This document shows positions 24,182 to 41,373 of a stretch of 64,000 bases of DNA, in pieces (the first letter of the stretch is position 1; the number at the start of each line of letters is the position of its first letter). The notes beneath the pieces are model-generated. The model saw only the letters and a program-made list of their open reading frames with translations. It was not told the DNA's origin and searched no databases. Made by a program: the position numbers and the translations under genes. The DNA is from an archaeon (GTDB lineage: Archaea > Nanobdellota > Nanobdellia > CSSed11-243R1), in NCBI GenBank assembly GCA_024277205.1, contig JAJRVP010000015.1, positions 1,645-65,644 on the forward strand. Direction: 5' to 3'.

Positions 24182-24682
24182 TCAACTTTGATTATGGGGT
24201 TTTTCTCCTTGCCAATGTCCCTCGTAGAGTTGATTAACTTCTCCTTTTGTGTCAAAAAACATCATTTGAAACCAATATTCATCTTTATGAACGCGAAGCT
24301 CTTGAACTGTTATTCTAACTGTCTGTGTTCCATGTCCAGAATAACCTGAATCCCAAACAGCGCTTTCTGATTTGATTACGCCAAGACGATTAAATGTGGA
24401 GCGAGGAAACAAAAGCCCAACTGCATTTTTTGGAATTGTAATTTTGTTTGCAATTCTAATTTCATATGTTCCTTTTGGCAAATAATAAAATCCATCTTCA
24501 TCAACATCAATTTTCATTTTTTCAGGTTCAATTTTTCTTTCTTTTCCGTTTATAGTTACAATTCCTTCTTCAGGAAGTTTCCAAATTTCAGAAACTTTTA
24601 AGTCAACACCATTGGGATTTATTTTAACCTCTGGTGGCTGTTCAATATATTTTGCAACTTCTTCACCAATCCAAACACTCAT
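24182..24682 (-). CDS. dCTP deaminase/dUTPase-family protein
   Basis: 166 aa. Beta-rich dUTPase-like fold with PNGVDLKVSEI near the N-terminus. Overlaps the upstream gene by 4 nt. Confidence 0.65.
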   Translation of the reverse strand: MSVWIGEEVAKYIEQPPEVKINPNGVDLKVSEIWKLPEEGIVTINGKERKIEPEKMKIDVDEDGFYYLPKGTYEIRIANKITIPKNAVGLLFPRSTFNRLGVIKSESAVWDSGYSGHGTQTVRITVQELRVHKDEYWFQMMFFDTKGEVNQLYEGHWQGEKPHNQS

Positions 24683-26045: not shown

Positions 26046-26206
26046 TGTCTCACCTTTATTATAATATCAGTTTAACTTTTTCTTAATGGTTTCGTTATAT
26101 ACCTCTTTAATATCAATAGATATCTAAAGGTTTTTGACTTTAGTGCCAATATATTTTCACTACTAACGAGGAACAAGTAATCGAAATCTTTATAAATGCG
26201 CTATTC

Positions 26207-26473
26207 TTGGGTATAGTTATGGCAGAAGTCGATGAGAAGTTAATACCTCTAAGTTTTGGTAGATCTCTGGTTGTAAGAGGACCAGAGGAATTTGAGCTAA
26301 GAAAAAGAGATGGCAGTAGTGTAAATTTCCATGCGATAATTTATAAAGGAACAATTTTTCCTAGATTGTATAAAGGAGGAGAATTAATAGCGTATCTGAC
26401 GTGGGGAGATATAGGGAGAATAATGGAGGGACTTGGAGAAGACTATGAACGACTATGTTTTTTCCGTCACTGA
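26207..26473 (+). CDS. hypothetical protein
   Basis: 88 aa ORF. Confidence 0.2.
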   Translation: MGIVMAEVDEKLIPLSFGRSLVVRGPEEFELRKRDGSSVNFHAIIYKGTIFPRLYKGGELIAYLTWGDIGRIMEGLGEDYERLCFFRH

Positions 26474-29613: not shown

Positions 29614-30261
29614 ATGGCAAGATATTCGCCTTACTCTCCAAGTGCAGGGCTATATCTAATAATACAACGCAATATTCCTATTGGAACATATAACAAAGAA
29701 GAATTAATAGAATTAATTAAATTCCATGGACCCCCAAAAACAAGAAGCCCAAATGTAAAAAGATTAATCAATTTTCTAAAAGAAGCAGGAGTTATAATAG
29801 AATCTGAAAACGAATATCAAATTGTTGAGTACATACCTCTTCAAGAAGCACTTATGCGAGCTGATGAAGTTGCTACAAAAAGAAGAAAATATAGAAGTAT
29901 TCAAAAAGCAGTTAGTACTCTTTCAACAAGTTTAAAATTTGGAGATACAACATTACATGTAACTAAACATTGCGAATCATATAGATGGGCAATAGAAGCT
30001 GGGTTGCTCATAGCAAATTTTGATGGATATAAAATAAACAGAGATTTGGTTCTCACCTACTCAAAAGCACTTGCATTAAAACGAGATTATCCGCCAATAT
30101 GGGAATGGTTTTCAGAAATAGTTAAAAATAATGGATTGCCGATTAATAAAATTGATGAAATTGCATTAAAAAAGCTTCTAAAAATTGAGCTTGTTAAAGT
30201 TGAAGATAATTTTGCTGTTCCAACTACCAAATTAGAAGATTTAATATTTGAAGAATTCTAA
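29614..30261 (+). CDS. hypothetical protein
   Basis: Start moved to an internal Met (MARYSPY...). The stop codon abuts the left direct repeat of the integrated element. Confidence 0.25.
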   Translation: MARYSPYSPSAGLYLIIQRNIPIGTYNKEELIELIKFHGPPKTRSPNVKRLINFLKEAGVIIESENEYQIVEYIPLQEALMRADEVATKRRKYRSIQKAVSTLSTSLKFGDTTLHVTKHCESYRWAIEAGLLIANFDGYKINRDLVLTYSKALALKRDYPPIWEWFSEIVKNNGLPINKIDEIALKKLLKIELVKVEDNFAVPTTKLEDLIFEEF

Positions 30262-30273
30262 AGCCTCGGGTGG
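30262..30273. repeat. att-like direct repeat (left copy) AGCCTCGGGTGG
   Basis: Exact 12-mer identical to the tRNA-Thr 3' end. Confidence 0.5.
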
Positions 30274-30433
30274 AACGAGAGACTGAGATTCATGTCACAT
30301 TTTGGCTATTCTTCCCACCTTTTTTATTTTTTATAGATATTGATCAAATATAAATTCTATGGTAACGAATAATATACTTTCAGATATCAAATAAAATAAA
30401 TACTGCGACTTGATTGCCTTATCGGTGATTTAA

Positions 30434-31018
30434 ATGGACAAACCAAATTATGAATATTTTACCAACTCGATTAGATATGTACTCGGGCTGAACAAACAAA
30501 CAATGGGTATAACCTCTCTATTTGAGATTGATAAAAAGTATTTAATTGAAGATTTCATGAAATGGATAAACAAGATAAAAAAGAGAGTCGTAGAGATAAC
30601 TAATTTAGATATAAATCTTAGAGAAAAACTACTATTTGAATTAGAATTATTAGAAAATAAAATCAAACTAATCAAAAAATCAGACATGGAATGGGAGATA
30701 ATTCCATCTTTGATGAATGTTATATCTAATCTTGTAGGATTTGAACATGGAGATATAAATCGAAACTGTCTATTTTACCAAAATTTCAGTCAAGAAATGA
30801 AGAGTCTTAAAAATAAAGGAAAATATCCTACGTATGAGGATATGGCTAAGTTTAGTAAATACAGAATTGAAGAGATCAGCCATATAGTTAACGAACTGCA
30901 CAAGAAGGGATACACCATCTATCAAATACATACAATCGTAAGACTACCACAACTTCAAATTAGAAAGATGCTACAAAAAAGCAGGCTTAAACGCCCGCCT
31001 GCTTCGCTGCTTCCCTGA
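30434..31018 (+). CDS. hypothetical protein (element cargo)
   Basis: 194 aa. The C-terminus runs into the GC-rich island. Confidence 0.3.
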   Translation: MDKPNYEYFTNSIRYVLGLNKQTMGITSLFEIDKKYLIEDFMKWINKIKKRVVEITNLDINLREKLLFELELLENKIKLIKKSDMEWEIIPSLMNVISNLVGFEHGDINRNCLFYQNFSQEMKSLKNKGKYPTYEDMAKFSKYRIEEISHIVNELHKKGYTIYQIHTIVRLPQLQIRKMLQKSRLKRPPASLLP

Positions 31019-31223
31019 GCAGCTCTGAAGCAATCCCTTCTGGTGTTTTCTGCTTTATGCCGAACGCGCTTCTGTAAAGGAAGAATATTGCTTTGCTGAT
31101 GTCCCTGCGAACGAAGGCGTCAACTCTCTCGTCAGAAGCTATCTTGGCGAGGTATCTTGCCTTCGCAAGAATCCTCCTTGCCCTTTTCGTATTTTCATCT
31201 AAAGCAGATTTTTTGTTTTCCAT
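30987..31223 (-). CDS. small helical hypothetical protein encoded with GC-rich codons (compositionally foreign)
   Basis: 78 aa, protein-like amphipathic helices. Codons are GCG/CGC/GGC-rich, unlike the rest of the window. Confidence 0.3.
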   Translation of the reverse strand: MENKKSALDENTKRARRILAKARYLAKIASDERVDAFVRRDISKAIFFLYRSAFGIKQKTPEGIASELLREAAKQAGV

Positions 31224-31224
31224 T

Positions 31225-31345
31225 TAAACCACCTCCGGTGGCGTCTCGGGAGCGTGGTCTCTTAATGCTTTTAGCGAAAGCGCGGTTGCCAACCAAAAGC
31301 TTTAAGTTGGACCAAGCGACAGCCACAAAGGAGGTGGTTGGAAAA
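31225..31345. other. GC-rich structured region upstream of the GC-rich small gene (possible leader or small RNA)
   Basis: Ten-base-pair closing helix AACCACCUCC...GGAGGUGGUU. Internal hairpins include CCAAC-(AAAGCUUU)-GUUGG and GCG-AAAG-CGC. Confidence 0.2.
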
Positions 31346-31398
31346 CAAATTAAACATTAGCAATAAATTATATAAACTCTGAATATGTTTAGTCAAAC

Positions 31399-31794
31399 AT
31401 GAAATACAAACACAGTAATCGTGATTTATTGTCTCTAATATTAATGTTTACATTTGTGATAACCTCAATATTGTTCTTTGTATCGACTGAAGGTAGTTAT
31501 ATGATCAAATATGACATGAATAATCCTTGGAGTCCAACTACAGAAGGTATTATGATGATATTCATCATAGGCACTCCAATAATTCTTGGTATTTTTGATT
31601 TATATTTTATCATATATTACATTGCTAATAACAAAGATGTTCTTTATACGCTAAATGCAGTAGTCAATATTATCTTTGGTATACCTACAGGGATTATTTT
31701 AATATCTAACCTAGGCCCAATAGTTAAACTATTATTTATGTTTATTGGGATATTTACACCAATTATAACTTTAGTTTTTCTCTTTGAAAAATGA
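31399..31794 (+). CDS. multi-pass small membrane protein, hypothetical
   Basis: 131 aa with four hydrophobic helices. Confidence 0.3.
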   Translation: MKYKHSNRDLLSLILMFTFVITSILFFVSTEGSYMIKYDMNNPWSPTTEGIMMIFIIGTPIILGIFDLYFIIYYIANNKDVLYTLNAVVNIIFGIPTGIILISNLGPIVKLLFMFIGIFTPIITLVFLFEK

Positions 31795-32143
31795 CTACTT
31801 AATAAAGATATCCAAATCCCCCAATTTTAGCGTTGAATGAAGAAATGAATAATTTTCTGAGTAAAAGAGCTGAAATTTATGAAAAAGGATTAAAAAAACA
31901 AGATTAAGATTTATACAACTTCTCAACAGCTTCAATAATCAAATCTCCCTTAACCTTTTTCTTAAAAAGTTCTTCAATCTCCTTTATTTTCTTTTCATTT
32001 AGATTTTGTTTGTACATCCTCATCGCCCTCCATAACTTCTCTTATCTCCTGCCTACCATTCAGGCATTTTTTCAAGAATTTCTTTCTTCATTTTAACCAA
32101 TAAGAATTAGATTAAGAAGTATAAAATGTGTTTAATAGTATTA

Positions 32144-32719
32144 TTATTTATAATTTGGATTTCTGCACACATGCCACATGTTGATTGCTCTTTCTTCTAC
32201 AAAGTTTATTTTTCCTTTCTTTTTAAAATCTTCAAGTATTTGTTTTAGTATCTCATATGTCTTTGGTTTGTTAATTCTAAGCCATTCAAAAGGTATATCA
32301 AATGCTTCTCCCTTACAATGTGGGTCCTCTTCTCCAAGCAAAGGATTTGCTAATTTCAAATCCTCAATTGTTCTTGTCATACTAACAATGACTATAAATT
32401 CGGTTTCTGGTGCTTTCTCTTTAAATTGTTCAACTATCTCCCTAAGAATATCAGCCATTTTAACCGACAATACAGGATGCTCTACTGTTTTGGCAATGTA
32501 TACATATTCATTATATCCCACTCTAACTAATTCTCCTCTTTTTAAAGCAGACTCTAAATCTTCTTTAGTTCGATACGCTTTTTTATTCTTGTACCACTCT
32601 CTTTCATTAGCTATTGCTTCTTTCATTTTGATTAGAACATCTTCAGGAACATCTTTTGGTCTTAGAAAATCTTGCTTAGTTGTGAATTTATTCAACTCCG
32701 CTTTTAAAATCCGTGGCAT
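32144..32719 (-). CDS. hypothetical protein (element cargo)
   Basis: 191 aa. Confidence 0.25.
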   Translation of the reverse strand: MPRILKAELNKFTTKQDFLRPKDVPEDVLIKMKEAIANEREWYKNKKAYRTKEDLESALKRGELVRVGYNEYVYIAKTVEHPVLSVKMADILREIVEQFKEKAPETEFIVIVSMTRTIEDLKLANPLLGEEDPHCKGEAFDIPFEWLRINKPKTYEILKQILEDFKKKGKINFVEERAINMWHVCRNPNYK

Positions 32720-32831
32720 AATTAAACTTTATCTGTTATTCGATTTAAAACTTTCTATGTTTCCTCAACAACCTCTTCTTTAATTGGCTCTATTTTGGTC
32801 TCTATATCTTTTTCAACCTCCTGCTTAAGAA

Positions 32832-33617
32832 TTATCCACCACTCTGGTAGCCTTTTTTGGATTTCCATGTCCATAAAATCACCAGCAATAGAACTAGTGA
32901 GAAGGGTTTATTAAAGTTGGAAGAAATTTCAAGTTTTAGAAACAAAAATAAAGGAGAATTTGGATCATCCCTGTTTGGATGAATTTCAAGCCAATTAGCA
33001 AGATAAGGAGTTGATGTAATTAATCTTATTCTTCTCATGCCTGTTTTTCCACTCACAATTATTTTTGCTCCATATTTGTCAAAATTTAAATGTTTAATCT
33101 GCATTGTTGCTAATTCACCAATTCTGCAACCAGATTCATAAAGTGTTGAAATGAGTGCTTTGTCCCTAACATGCCCTGCTGCTTCTATCAATCTTTTTAC
33201 TTCTTCAATTGTCAGGATTTCCTCTGGCAATCTGCTTTTTCCATTTTTCATAGTTGTTTTTAACCATTTGATTTTTTCTGGATACTCTCCATTGTTTAGC
33301 CATTTGTAGAATTTCTTTATAGAAATCTTGTGCAACTGCTTTGTCCATTCTGCATAATCCATTCTTTCTATTTTTTGAACCAAATCCAACAAATCTTCTT
33401 TATTTGCTTTGTCCAAATCTTTGTTCAGCCAAGATATTATGTTTTTCAAAAGATAAAGGTATCGCTCCACTCTCACAATGCTGAGCCCTTGTGCAAAGCA
33501 ATCCCTTTGAAATTTTAAAAGCAGTTCCTTGTTTCTCTTTGAGATTTTTCTAGACTTTTTAATTTTCTCAAGAACTTGTCTAAGCCTTTTCTCAGATTCA
33601 TGAATGTCCTGCTTCAT
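32832..33617 (-). pseudogene. tyrosine recombinase/integrase (XerC/XerD-like), C-terminally truncated
   Basis: N-terminal SAM-like core-binding domain and box I with catalytic Arg (ESGCRIGEL) are present. After NSPLF the frame degenerates, and the HxxR and Tyr motifs are absent. Confidence 0.55.
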
Positions 33618-33685
33618 GCTTTCACCTTCTTAACAAGGCGAGAAGACTTAATTAAGGCTCTAAGGGACACGAATCTGAGATAGAC

Positions 33686-33697
33686 AGCCTCGGGTGG
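33686..33697. repeat. att-like direct repeat (right copy, inside tRNA-Thr 3' end)
   Basis: Exact 12-mer AGCCTCGGGTGG. Confidence 0.5.
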
Positions 33698-33806
33698 GAT
33701 TTGCACCCACGACCTTCGCCTCTTTGCAACCTTTTCTTTGGTTGAGCTTTCTTTTCCAAAGAAAGGTCATACCAAGGCGACGCGCTACTAGCTACGCCAC
33801 CGAGGC
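33686..33806 (-). tRNA. tRNA-Thr (anticodon GGU) with about 47-nt intron in the anticodon loop
   Basis: Acceptor GCCUCGG/CCGAGGC, U8, D-stem GCGU/GCGC, anticodon stem UCGCC/GGCGA, T-arm GUGGG-UGCAAAU-CCCAC, U73 (archaeal Thr identity). Exon junctions give loop UUGGUA|A. The exact splice sites cannot be fixed by eye. Confidence 0.55.
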
Positions 33807-33847
33807 TTAACTAAATTATTAAATATTTCATTTAAATATATATTGCT

Positions 33848-34795
33848 ATGGCGCATCCCCTCTTTTTGATTATTGGGCTTGTTGGACTATGGATTGGCTC
33901 AGGACTAGTAGTCGATGGGGCAAAGGGTTTGGCTAGAAAATTTGGCATATCTGAATTATTCATCGGACTTACAATTGCATCAATTGGAACATCTATTCCA
34001 GAAATATCTGTAAGTCTAATTGGTGCACTTGACAGGTTAAAAGGCATAGAAACATCAGGTGTGGTTGTTGGAAATGCATTAGGTTCAATTCTAAATCAAG
34101 TGACATTAATTATCGGATTAGTTGGGCTTTTTACAGTTTTAACAATTAGCAAAAGAGAATGGAAACGGGAAGGCTTTTCTCTTTTAGCATCTTTAGGAGT
34201 ATTCGCATTAGTTGCATGGGATGGCTACATAAGTCATCTTGAAGGATTCTTCATGATTATTGTATTCATAATATATTTCTTCATCTTAATAAGTTCAGAA
34301 AAAAGAGCTGGAGTAATTCACAATTCAAAAGAAAAAAAGATTAGCGCATTTTTAATGATTCTATCTATAATATTTGGCCTTGCAATTGTTATTTTCTCCT
34401 CAGAATTTACTATTGGTGGTGCATTAGAACTTGCAGAAATGTGGAATATAAAGGAATCATTAATAGGTATTGTAATTATTGGTTTAGGAACAGGACTTCC
34501 AGAACTTATGGTTTCTTTGCGTGCTGTATTAAAAGGTTCTATATCTTTCTCAGTTGGAAATTTGCTTGGAAGTAATGTTGTAGATTTACTCTTCTCTCTT
34601 GGATTAGGCGCCTCAATTTCTGGATTTTTAGTTAACTCCAACATAATTTTATTTGACTTACCTATGTTAATATTAATGACAAGCGTCATGCTGTTGTTAT
34701 TCAGGACAAATCTTAAATTAGAGCGAAAAGAATCTTTAATTTTGATTTTAATCTACATAACCTATGTTGGCATCAAAATATTTTTGAGGTTATAA
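33848..34795 (+). CDS. Na+/Ca2+ exchanger (CaCA / YrbG-like) family transporter
   Basis: 315 aa. Two alpha-repeats carry GTSIPE and GTGLPE. Confidence 0.7.
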   Translation: MAHPLFLIIGLVGLWIGSGLVVDGAKGLARKFGISELFIGLTIASIGTSIPEISVSLIGALDRLKGIETSGVVVGNALGSILNQVTLIIGLVGLFTVLTISKREWKREGFSLLASLGVFALVAWDGYISHLEGFFMIIVFIIYFFILISSEKRAGVIHNSKEKKISAFLMILSIIFGLAIVIFSSEFTIGGALELAEMWNIKESLIGIVIIGLGTGLPELMVSLRAVLKGSISFSVGNLLGSNVVDLLFSLGLGASISGFLVNSNIILFDLPMLILMTSVMLLLFRTNLKLERKESLILILIYITYVGIKIFLRL

Positions 34796-41104: not shown

Positions 41105-41373
41105 TGCGGGGGAGGAGATTTTCACCAACCCTTTCTTTTGGTCGAGCTTTTCTTTTTAAGAAAAGGTCGTTTTGAACTCCCGCAGGGATTGGTCACCAAA
41201 GCGCCAAAGGGCACATTAGCTCTAACCCACCAGGTATCCACGACCCCTTCTTTTGGTCGAGCTTTTCTTCCAAAGAAAAGGTCGCCTAAGCCTGGCCCGT
41301 TTGACCGTACCGTGCTCTTTCTTTCCCGAGGGTTTCTTTCTCACGAGAAAGAAGAGCTCTCCGGCACCCCCGC
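41105..41373 (-). tRNA. tRNA-Leu (anticodon UAG), class II, with at least three introns (D-loop, anticodon loop, T-loop region)
   Basis: Acceptor GCGGGGG/CCCCCGC with A73. D-arm CCG-GAGCGGUCAAA-CGG appears after removing a 50-nt D-loop intron. Anticodon stem CCAGG/CCUGG with loop CUUAGG|A. T-stem GGGAG/CUCCU is split by an intron after UUCAAAA. A 48-nt stretch in the variable region is unresolved. Confidence 0.45.

Follow-up and report, generated by a model that had tools for sequence, protein, structure and literature searches.

Results

A short segment between a tRNA gene and a direct repeat

This report concerns a segment of about 3.4 kb (30262-33697) in a window of 64,000 nucleotides (nt) from contig JAJRVP010000015.1 of an archaeon of the Nanobdellota (assembly GCA_024277205.1). 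All coordinates refer to this window unless another contig is named. The segment has direct repeats at both borders, one of which overlaps the 3' end of a transfer RNA (tRNA) gene that was left intact. Next to the tRNA it carries an incomplete tyrosine-recombinase gene, and it is very probably what is left of a small, now decayed integrative element of archaea. The features on which this reading rests, with the attachment sites (att) named accordingly, are:

29614-30261, forward strand: hypothetical gene of 215 amino acids (aa), taken as the chromosomal flank on the attR side (B'); its TAA stop touches the repeat
30262-30273, no strand: attR core, displaced copy of the final 12 nt of the tRNA-Thr; exact match, two copies in the window
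30283-30296, no strand: border half of the putative attP inverted repeat (CTGAGATTCATGTC), 9 nt inside attR; pairs with 33666-33679
32832-33617, reverse strand: truncated tyrosine-recombinase gene (int), open reading frame (ORF) of 261 aa; found with Pfam, PHROG, NCBIfam, tblastn and alignment
32899-32916, reverse strand: promoter-like motif CTTTAATAAACCCTTCTC, at the start of the homology to contig L101 (see below), where the resemblance of the integrase ORF to its family also ends
33666-33679, no strand: border half of the putative attP inverted repeat (GACACGAATCTGAG), 6 nt inside attL, with the int ATG 48 nt downstream
33686-33697, no strand: attL core, 3'-terminal 12 nt of the intact tRNA-Thr; from the repeat and the tRNA call
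33686-33806, reverse strand: tRNA-Thr(GGU) with a 48-nt intron, the integration target; Rfam 51 bits, ARAGORN -i and our own T-arm/acceptor scan

A preliminary description of this DNA had named an intron-containing tRNA-Thr at one end of the segment. This call was confirmed by Rfam and by ARAGORN with introns allowed, which reported tRNA-Thr(ggt) with a 48-nt intron; the default ARAGORN run overlooks this tRNA. On the tRNA strand the 12-mer reads CCACCCGAGGCT and comprises the final 3 nt of the T stem, the 3' acceptor strand and the discriminator.

The 12-mer itself, AGCCTCGGGTGG, is present in exactly two copies in the window, both on the forward strand, one at the tRNA 3' end and one 3.4 kb away. 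The distant copy begins right after the TAA stop codon (30259-30261) of the gene at 29614-30261, so that both positions given in the preliminary description were correct. Its assertion that a chance recurrence is very unlikely held as well: none of 100 dinucleotide-preserving shuffles of the window reached two copies, and from base composition about 3e-5 copies are expected within 10 kb. A third copy with at most one mismatch was not found in the window. With up to two mismatches there was a single additional site, at 24626 (chance expectation 0.61). Prolonged into the tRNA to a 20-mer, the word is unique in the window, and no similarity between both repeat sites was found outside the 12 nt. 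The gene at 29614-30261 had no match in Pfam, PHROG, NCBIfam or PADLOC and forms a singleton cluster.

The integrase gene is truncated

A tyrosine-recombinase gene thus lies inside the segment beside one att site, with its start codon 68 nt from attL. The 261-aa ORF matched Pfam Phage_integrase (8e-10) and PHROG_1 (3e-17), and the NCBIfam model for archaeal XerA below its cut-off. Homologues are very numerous. Nearly all are 390-420 aa long (typically about 395) and carry the catalytic series R...K...HxxRH...Y followed by a C-terminal CxxC...CxxC zinc ribbon. The fragment aligns to family residues 1 to about 225-240 (by tblastn, residues 3-239 of family member P0002) and is 55-57% identical to intact integrases of about 395 aa. 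It retains the SAM-like N domain, the catalytic Arg (in RIGEL) and the catalytic Lys (in GKTGMRR); HxxRH, the Tyr and the zinc ribbon are missing. An active tyrosine integrase needs the full set R-K-H-R-H/W-Y. Because only R and K remain, we class the element as a decayed remnant and not as an active one.

The preliminary description had the recombinase losing its frame before the HxxR and Tyr motifs. The motifs are indeed missing, yet no frame is lost. The N-terminal 225 codons are stop-free, and a ribosome-binding site and a promoter-like motif precede them intact. Neither three-frame translation nor tblastn with five intact homologues revealed C-terminal integrase sequence past about 32900, and a hidden Markov model (HMM) of the C-terminal half had no match in any frame of the 64-kb window. 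This ruled out a frameshifted gene; int is truncated. An 'INPSH' in another frame was considered as an integrase remnant and rejected as a coincidence as its spacing is wrong. Family resemblance ends just after PLF, near nt 32946, so that only 33617 to about 32946 is integrase-derived. From 32914 downward there is homology to a module of a Nanoarchaeota metagenome-assembled genome (MAG), termed block A, and in its final 35 or so codons the ORF reads through into a promoter-like region. In the corrected reading, which stems from these alignments, int appears to have been cut at about 32945 by a junction to an unrelated module of small ORFs.

The promoter-like motif at this junction also stands at 33657, about 40 nt ahead of the start codon of int, and upstream of two genes of contig L101. 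In the generalised form C[CT]TTAAT[AT]AA..CTTCTC it occurs at 33640-33657 and 32899-32916 of the window and at 572-589 and 1231-1248 of L101, that is, 30-45 nt ahead of the start codons of four different genes on two DPANN contigs, and each time a GGTGA-type ribosome-binding site follows. The word CCTTAATAAACCCTTCTC had been considered as a recombination site. This was dropped: because it is found at about -40 of several unrelated genes, it is better read as a promoter.

Relatives sit beside tRNA genes with the same geometry

The integrase family was sampled in 80 metagenome loci, 10 IMG/VR loci and two further contigs encoding relatives. Upstream DNA was sufficient in 75 loci, and about 28 of these have a same-strand tRNA before the int start, mostly at a distance of 45-70 nt and up to about 190 nt; in the window the gap is 68 nt. 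An independent T-arm/acceptor scan found an upstream tRNA in 25 of 76 loci. Thr is the commonest target, and Leu, Glu, Ala and Ser also occur. The two closest relatives with an adjoining tRNA, L009 (57% identity, intron-bearing tRNA) and L048 (56%), are both at tRNA-Thr(GGU). Intact family genes sit unbroken beside their tRNA.

In most family loci no far-border repeat was found within 10 kb. Where one was within reach, it is a short copy of the extreme 3' end of the tRNA: in L034 a 16-nt repeat delimits an element of about 5.7 kb, and in L056 a 12-nt repeat delimits about 3.9 kb with an intact integrase and a few small cargo genes. L056 (4174-8081) constitutes a complete family element in an intron-bearing tRNA-Thr(GGU) and shows that smallness is possible in intact members. 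Judged by eye from the translations, its cargo looks like a GNAT-type toxin, a small antitoxin-like partner and a TPR-like protein. IMG/VR was also searched with the tRNA 3' end and with the leader motif described below, with no match for either, and a single-protein scan with P0002 found nothing.

Joining the ends restores an attP-like site

Several relatives have no tRNA beside int and are presumably free or attP forms. In these, inverted-repeat arms of 10-20 nt enclose a spacer of 17-47 nt which contains a word like a tRNA 3' end. Such an attP-like inverted repeat, ending 36-59 nt before the ATG, was counted by eye in 21 of the 34 tRNA-less loci examined. Joining the two ends of the window segment yields the same arrangement: arms of 14 nt with 2 mismatches, a 27-nt spacer holding the 12-bp core, and an end of the repeat 48 nt before the int ATG. 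Read as reverse complements, the arms are GACATGAATCTCAG (30283-30296) and CTCAGATTCGTGTC (33666-33679). An attP-like inverted repeat is likewise restored when the two ends of L034, or those of L056, are joined.

As a null model, the far flank was swapped for random 60-mers of the same sequence in 1500 trials. Random flanks equalled the real score in 12 of 1500 trials for the window, 9 of 1500 for L034 and 14 of 1500 for L056. This links 30283-30296 and 33666-33679, which are 3.4 kb apart, as halves of one site, independently of the 12-mer itself. Across loci L010-L100, a putative attP design of the family is recognisable, in which inverted repeats flank a tRNA-end core of 12-16 bp and end 36-59 nt upstream of int. 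The CTGAGAT words next to the two cores had been considered as direct repeats; this was rejected since they form the centre of the inverted repeat.

The interior is a mosaic

The remaining ORFs and elements between the repeats are:

30434-31018, forward strand: orf194, hypothetical, weak helix-turn-helix signal (Pfam HTH_36, E 0.003, below cut-off); singleton
30984-31348, reverse strand: GC-rich 366-bp cassette, 47% guanine plus cytosine (GC); 97.3% identical to L101 by blastn and alignment
30987-31223, reverse strand: ORF78, conserved three-helix protein of 78 aa
31224-31348, reverse strand: structured leader, a long imperfect hairpin that pairs the ribosome-binding site GGAGGUGG and the AUG of ORF78
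31399-31794, forward strand: orf131, small membrane protein with about four hydrophobic segments (hydropathy scan); absent from the L101 module
31904-32017, reverse strand: sORF-B (small ORF), 37 aa, conserved with L101/L102 (90% aa identity over residues 6-36)
32144-32719, reverse strand: DUF5715 protein, probable LAS/M15-type zinc peptidase; absent from the L101 module
32755-32874, reverse strand: sORF-A, 39 aa; its N-terminal RLPEWW motif is conserved in L101, L102 and L103

L101 is the Nanoarchaeota MAG contig JAGGYW010000006.1, and L102 is near-identical to it. The interior is collinear with a short stretch of L101/L102 and of L103, the shared order being promoter-like motif, sORF-A with its RLPEWW motif, sORF-B, hairpin leader and ORF78. 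Two genes are intercalated in the window, the DUF5715 gene in the gap between sORF-A and sORF-B, and the membrane protein gene, which is on the opposite strand and separates sORF-B from the leader. Further towards attR, the last 35 or so nt of orf194 enter the GC-rich cassette, and the codons of its 10 C-terminal aa run antisense to the end of ORF78. Therefore, the present C-terminus of orf194 is probably not the original one. The preliminary description had listed a recombinase fragment, a four-helix membrane protein and a GC-atypical gene inside the repeats. All three were recovered: orf131 has the expected hydrophobic segments, and the atypical gene is a 47% GC ORF in a 32% GC background.

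The DUF5715 cargo protein is probably a zinc peptidase of the LAS/M15 type. As comparison group we name the LAS or MEROPS M15-M74 zinc peptidases (MepA, VanX/VanY and the phage L-Ala-D-Glu endolysins), the hallmark of which is a set of conserved His, Asp and His zinc ligands on the LAS fold. A sequence search of the PDB gave no match for the DUF5715 protein, and its weak AbiEi and JetB matches were disregarded. For orf131 there was no match in Pfam, PHROG or NCBIfam. Across the cargo genes, the PADLOC (defence), PHROG and NCBIfam libraries returned nothing meaningful. No cargo ORF had a structural match in PHROG or Pfam that would denote virion or packaging genes, and the segment thus does not qualify as a provirus. 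Homologues of the cargo genes were not found in the roughly 90 other integrase loci, nor were relatives of ORF78 and DUF5715 found in IMG/VR. Because no cargo ORF recurs in other integrase loci, the interior is not a conserved element backbone, and as IMG/VR gave none either, the present interior may not be the original cargo. A search of recombinase and cargo against databases of mobile elements had been suggested together with the preliminary description; the integrase is related to provirus integrases, and for the cargo no meaningful match was found in PHROG, in IMG/VR or at the other loci.

A GC-rich cassette of leader and ORF78

The leader and ORF78 together form the cassette of 47% GC in a genome of 32% GC. 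The blocks adjoining the cassette are only 73-75% identical to L101. The leader has a minimum free energy of -65 kcal/mol (z -7.8), and none of 200 shuffles folds equally well. In three homologues its stems are invariant and the apex is variable. Compared with the 80%-identical copy in L103 the stems are nearly invariant, whereas the coding part differs at 23% of positions. No Rfam family matched the leader, and a fold search with ORF78 gave only generic helical bundles and no informative relatives.

The cassette is 97% identical in two archaea which otherwise share no protein at 90% identity; this shows an apparently recent exchange with other elements. Conceivably, though we consider it rather doubtful, the cassette is an independently exchanged RNA-protein module of DPANN mobile elements, with the leader as a hitherto undescribed cis-regulatory RNA that would hold translation off until the hairpin opens. 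Its mode of action may be likened to that of type I toxin or copy-control leaders.

The target tRNA and its surroundings

Some observations on the tRNA-Thr(GGU) and its neighbourhood are added here. U55 is near-universal in the tRNA T-loop. The T-loop of the tRNA at 33686-33806 is TGCAAAT, with a G at the position of U55, and the same T-loop is found in the tRNA-Thr(GGU) of a Woesearchaeota MAG, L001 (5740-5826). A Na/Ca exchanger gene adjoins this tRNA in both (33686-34795 in the window, 4799-5826 in L001), but the two are oriented differently: in L001 the exchanger stop codon directly adjoins the tRNA 3' end, whereas in the window it is the exchanger start that the tRNA 5' end faces. This suggests that the DNA around the tRNA was locally inverted or rearranged.

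On the reverse strand, 41106-41372 resembles one or two tRNA genes with at least 2 introns; it begins GCGGGGGTGCCGGAGAGC and ends CTCCTCCCCCGCA. ARAGORN and Rfam made no tRNA call there. Two stretches of about 40 nt in it (41128-41170 and 41243-41285) are very similar to the tRNA-Thr intron core at 33733-33775, suggesting that tRNA introns of this genome form a related family. L101 11255-11387 matches window 41247-41117 at 81%. Finally, the intergenic region 26046-26466 has 36-39% GC and a GC skew of +0.4 in the 32% GC genome and is possibly a non-coding RNA; Rfam at gathering threshold reported nothing at this position.

Discussion

A probable decayed element integrated at tRNA-Thr(GGU)

The 12-mer repeat, the family geometry, the short repeats of relatives and the rebuilt attP together argue strongly that 30262-33697 is what the preliminary description had proposed, a small decayed integrative element that used a tRNA 3' end as attB. 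It would be of the 'cryptic integrated element' type and product of a classical, non-suicidal integration. From the observed repeats, tRNA, truncated int, family geometry, border inverted repeat and mosaic homologies we infer the recombination event, its sequel and the present immobility as follows. A circular element would have carried attP about 50-80 bp upstream of its tyrosine-integrase gene, the 12-bp core of which matched the 3' end of tRNA-Thr(GGU) exactly and lay between 14-nt inverted repeats. The integrase would have recombined this core with the final 12 bp of the tRNA. Integration would leave the tRNA intact (attL, 33686-33697) with int 68 nt downstream, and a displaced 12-bp copy at the far border (attR, 30262-30273) beside the stop codon of the neighbouring gene. 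In a later phase of decay int probably lost its catalytic C-terminal 170 or so codons via a rearrangement with a breakpoint near 32945, which would have fused it to the small-ORF module also present in other DPANN contigs. The outcome would be the present mosaic of sORF-A, probable LAS-type peptidase gene, sORF-B, membrane protein gene, exchanged leader and ORF78 cassette and orf194, a remnant presumably unable to excise on its own.

Several points weigh against this reading. The gene flanking attR, which we assume to be a host gene, has no known family. Taken alone, the inverted-repeat test reaches a significance of only about 1%. The absence of every cargo gene from the other integrase loci and from IMG/VR has been described above, and the base composition of the segment, cassette excepted, is that of the host. 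Lastly, exact look-ups of window proteins gave no matching contig, the looked-up proteins all being singletons at 90% identity, and a scan of genome contigs with the Na/Ca exchanger returned L001 as best relative, 43% identical and non-syntenic, so that the host has no close sequenced relative to supply an empty site.

Other explanations

Among the alternatives the least improbable, though still unlikely, is that the remnant is not dead and can be excised or mobilised in trans by a full-length family integrase encoded elsewhere in the genome or on a co-resident element. Identical att cores and preserved border arms would permit this, and the intact promoter-like motif and ribosome-binding site of int with its 225 stop-free N-terminal codons, as well as the 97% identical cassette as a sign of recent exchange with other elements, are in its favour; the 64-kb window, however, does not contain a second family integrase. 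There is also a slight chance that the element is larger or tandem and has its true far border elsewhere, the 12-mer at 30262 being an internal or secondary site. Many family elements must exceed 10 kb, as no repeat was found within that distance in most loci, and archaea are known to carry tandem arrays at a single tRNA (PMC6563490). Yet the 64 kb hold no further att-like copy at up to one mismatch, and the two-mismatch match is at chance level. Moreover, the genes just past 30262 include ordinary enzyme families, a HAD hydrolase (Pfam) and a NUDIX-like protein (by eye), and an inverted-repeat half adjoins the 30262 copy as a true border predicts.

It is very improbable that the repeat arose by chance, with the int fragment by the tRNA an unrelated leftover and the genes between ordinary chromosomal ones. 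Such a view can point to the shortness of 12 bp, to the host-like composition of most of the segment and to DUF5715 homologues elsewhere in chromosomal-looking contexts. Three independent lines contradict it, namely the shuffles and the expected copy number given above, the border inverted repeat and the family geometry, the latter two being independent of the repeat. Least of all do we credit an SSV-type ('suicidal') integration, in which attP lies inside the int ORF and the C-terminal part ends up at the other end or elsewhere. The possibility of such a split gene had been raised with the preliminary description, int is incomplete, and splitting of this kind is common in some archaea (PMC7253208, PMC8371274). 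But the core is upstream of the int start codon, outside the ORF, the fragment reads inward from its own start, the breakpoint at about 32945 has no att or tRNA-like sequence, and the C-terminal-half HMM detected no int(C) in the 64 kb. Since the core precedes the int start and intact relatives are unbroken next to their tRNA, an SSV-type split does not apply. Integration of a small element at the tRNA-Thr followed by decay thus remains the preferred explanation.

Relation to known systems

The closest parallel is with the thaumarchaeal cryptic integrated elements (Krupovic et al. 2019, PMC6563490). These too have XerC/XerD-like integrases and insert into tRNA genes, some of them with introns; their att sites are very short (median 17 bp, minimum 8 bp), they measure 2.6 to 98 kb, and their cargo is mostly ORFan. 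Archaeal att sites as short as 8-13 bp have been published (PMC8371274, PMC6563490). The host here is instead DPANN-like, the integrase is truncated and the interior is rearranged. One Nitrosopumilaceae protein is among the integrase matches.

The pleomorphic proviruses GacPV1 (BK065156) and ThalV2 (BK065158) (PMC10919331) carry homologous integrases, 42% and 37% identical to P0002 over 93% of its length, and in GacPV1 the integrase is the first gene at the provirus border. In contrast, the window element has neither VP3/VP4-like virion genes nor Rep and is about 4 times smaller. XerA (PDB 4a8e, 5hxy; NCBIfam NF040815) provides the best-scoring curated model and the closest solved structures, with the same two-domain tyrosine-recombinase fold. 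However, NF040815 gives 81 bits for the window fragment and 110-127 for intact homologues, far under its 220-bit cut-off, so that the family is not assigned to XerA. It differs in the additional C-terminal CxxC...CxxC zinc ribbon and tail, and it is located beside tRNA genes with attP-like repeats instead of acting at dif. The suicidal integrases of the SSV type, pTN3 and pT26-2 (PMC7253208, PMC8371274) are likewise archaeal and tRNA-targeting, and their int is inactive after integration. There, att lies inside the int ORF and measures at least 40-50 bp; here a 12-bp core is upstream, and inactivation appears to be due to later truncation.

The element is a further case of a known kind, the remnant of a cryptic integrated element, and an ordinary, cleanly delimited fossil. 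Taken alone it is routine, one more tRNA-targeting element and by all appearances now dead. It does document that tRNA-Thr(GGU) has served as a target of site-specific integration in a DPANN-like archaeon; the mobile elements of this group have been poorly characterised. The recently exchanged cassette of leader and small protein may be a new regulatory RNA. The large, Xer-like integrase family occurs in many archaeal lineages and in some proviruses, and its putative attP design would offer a simple rule for finding the borders of such elements in metagenomes.

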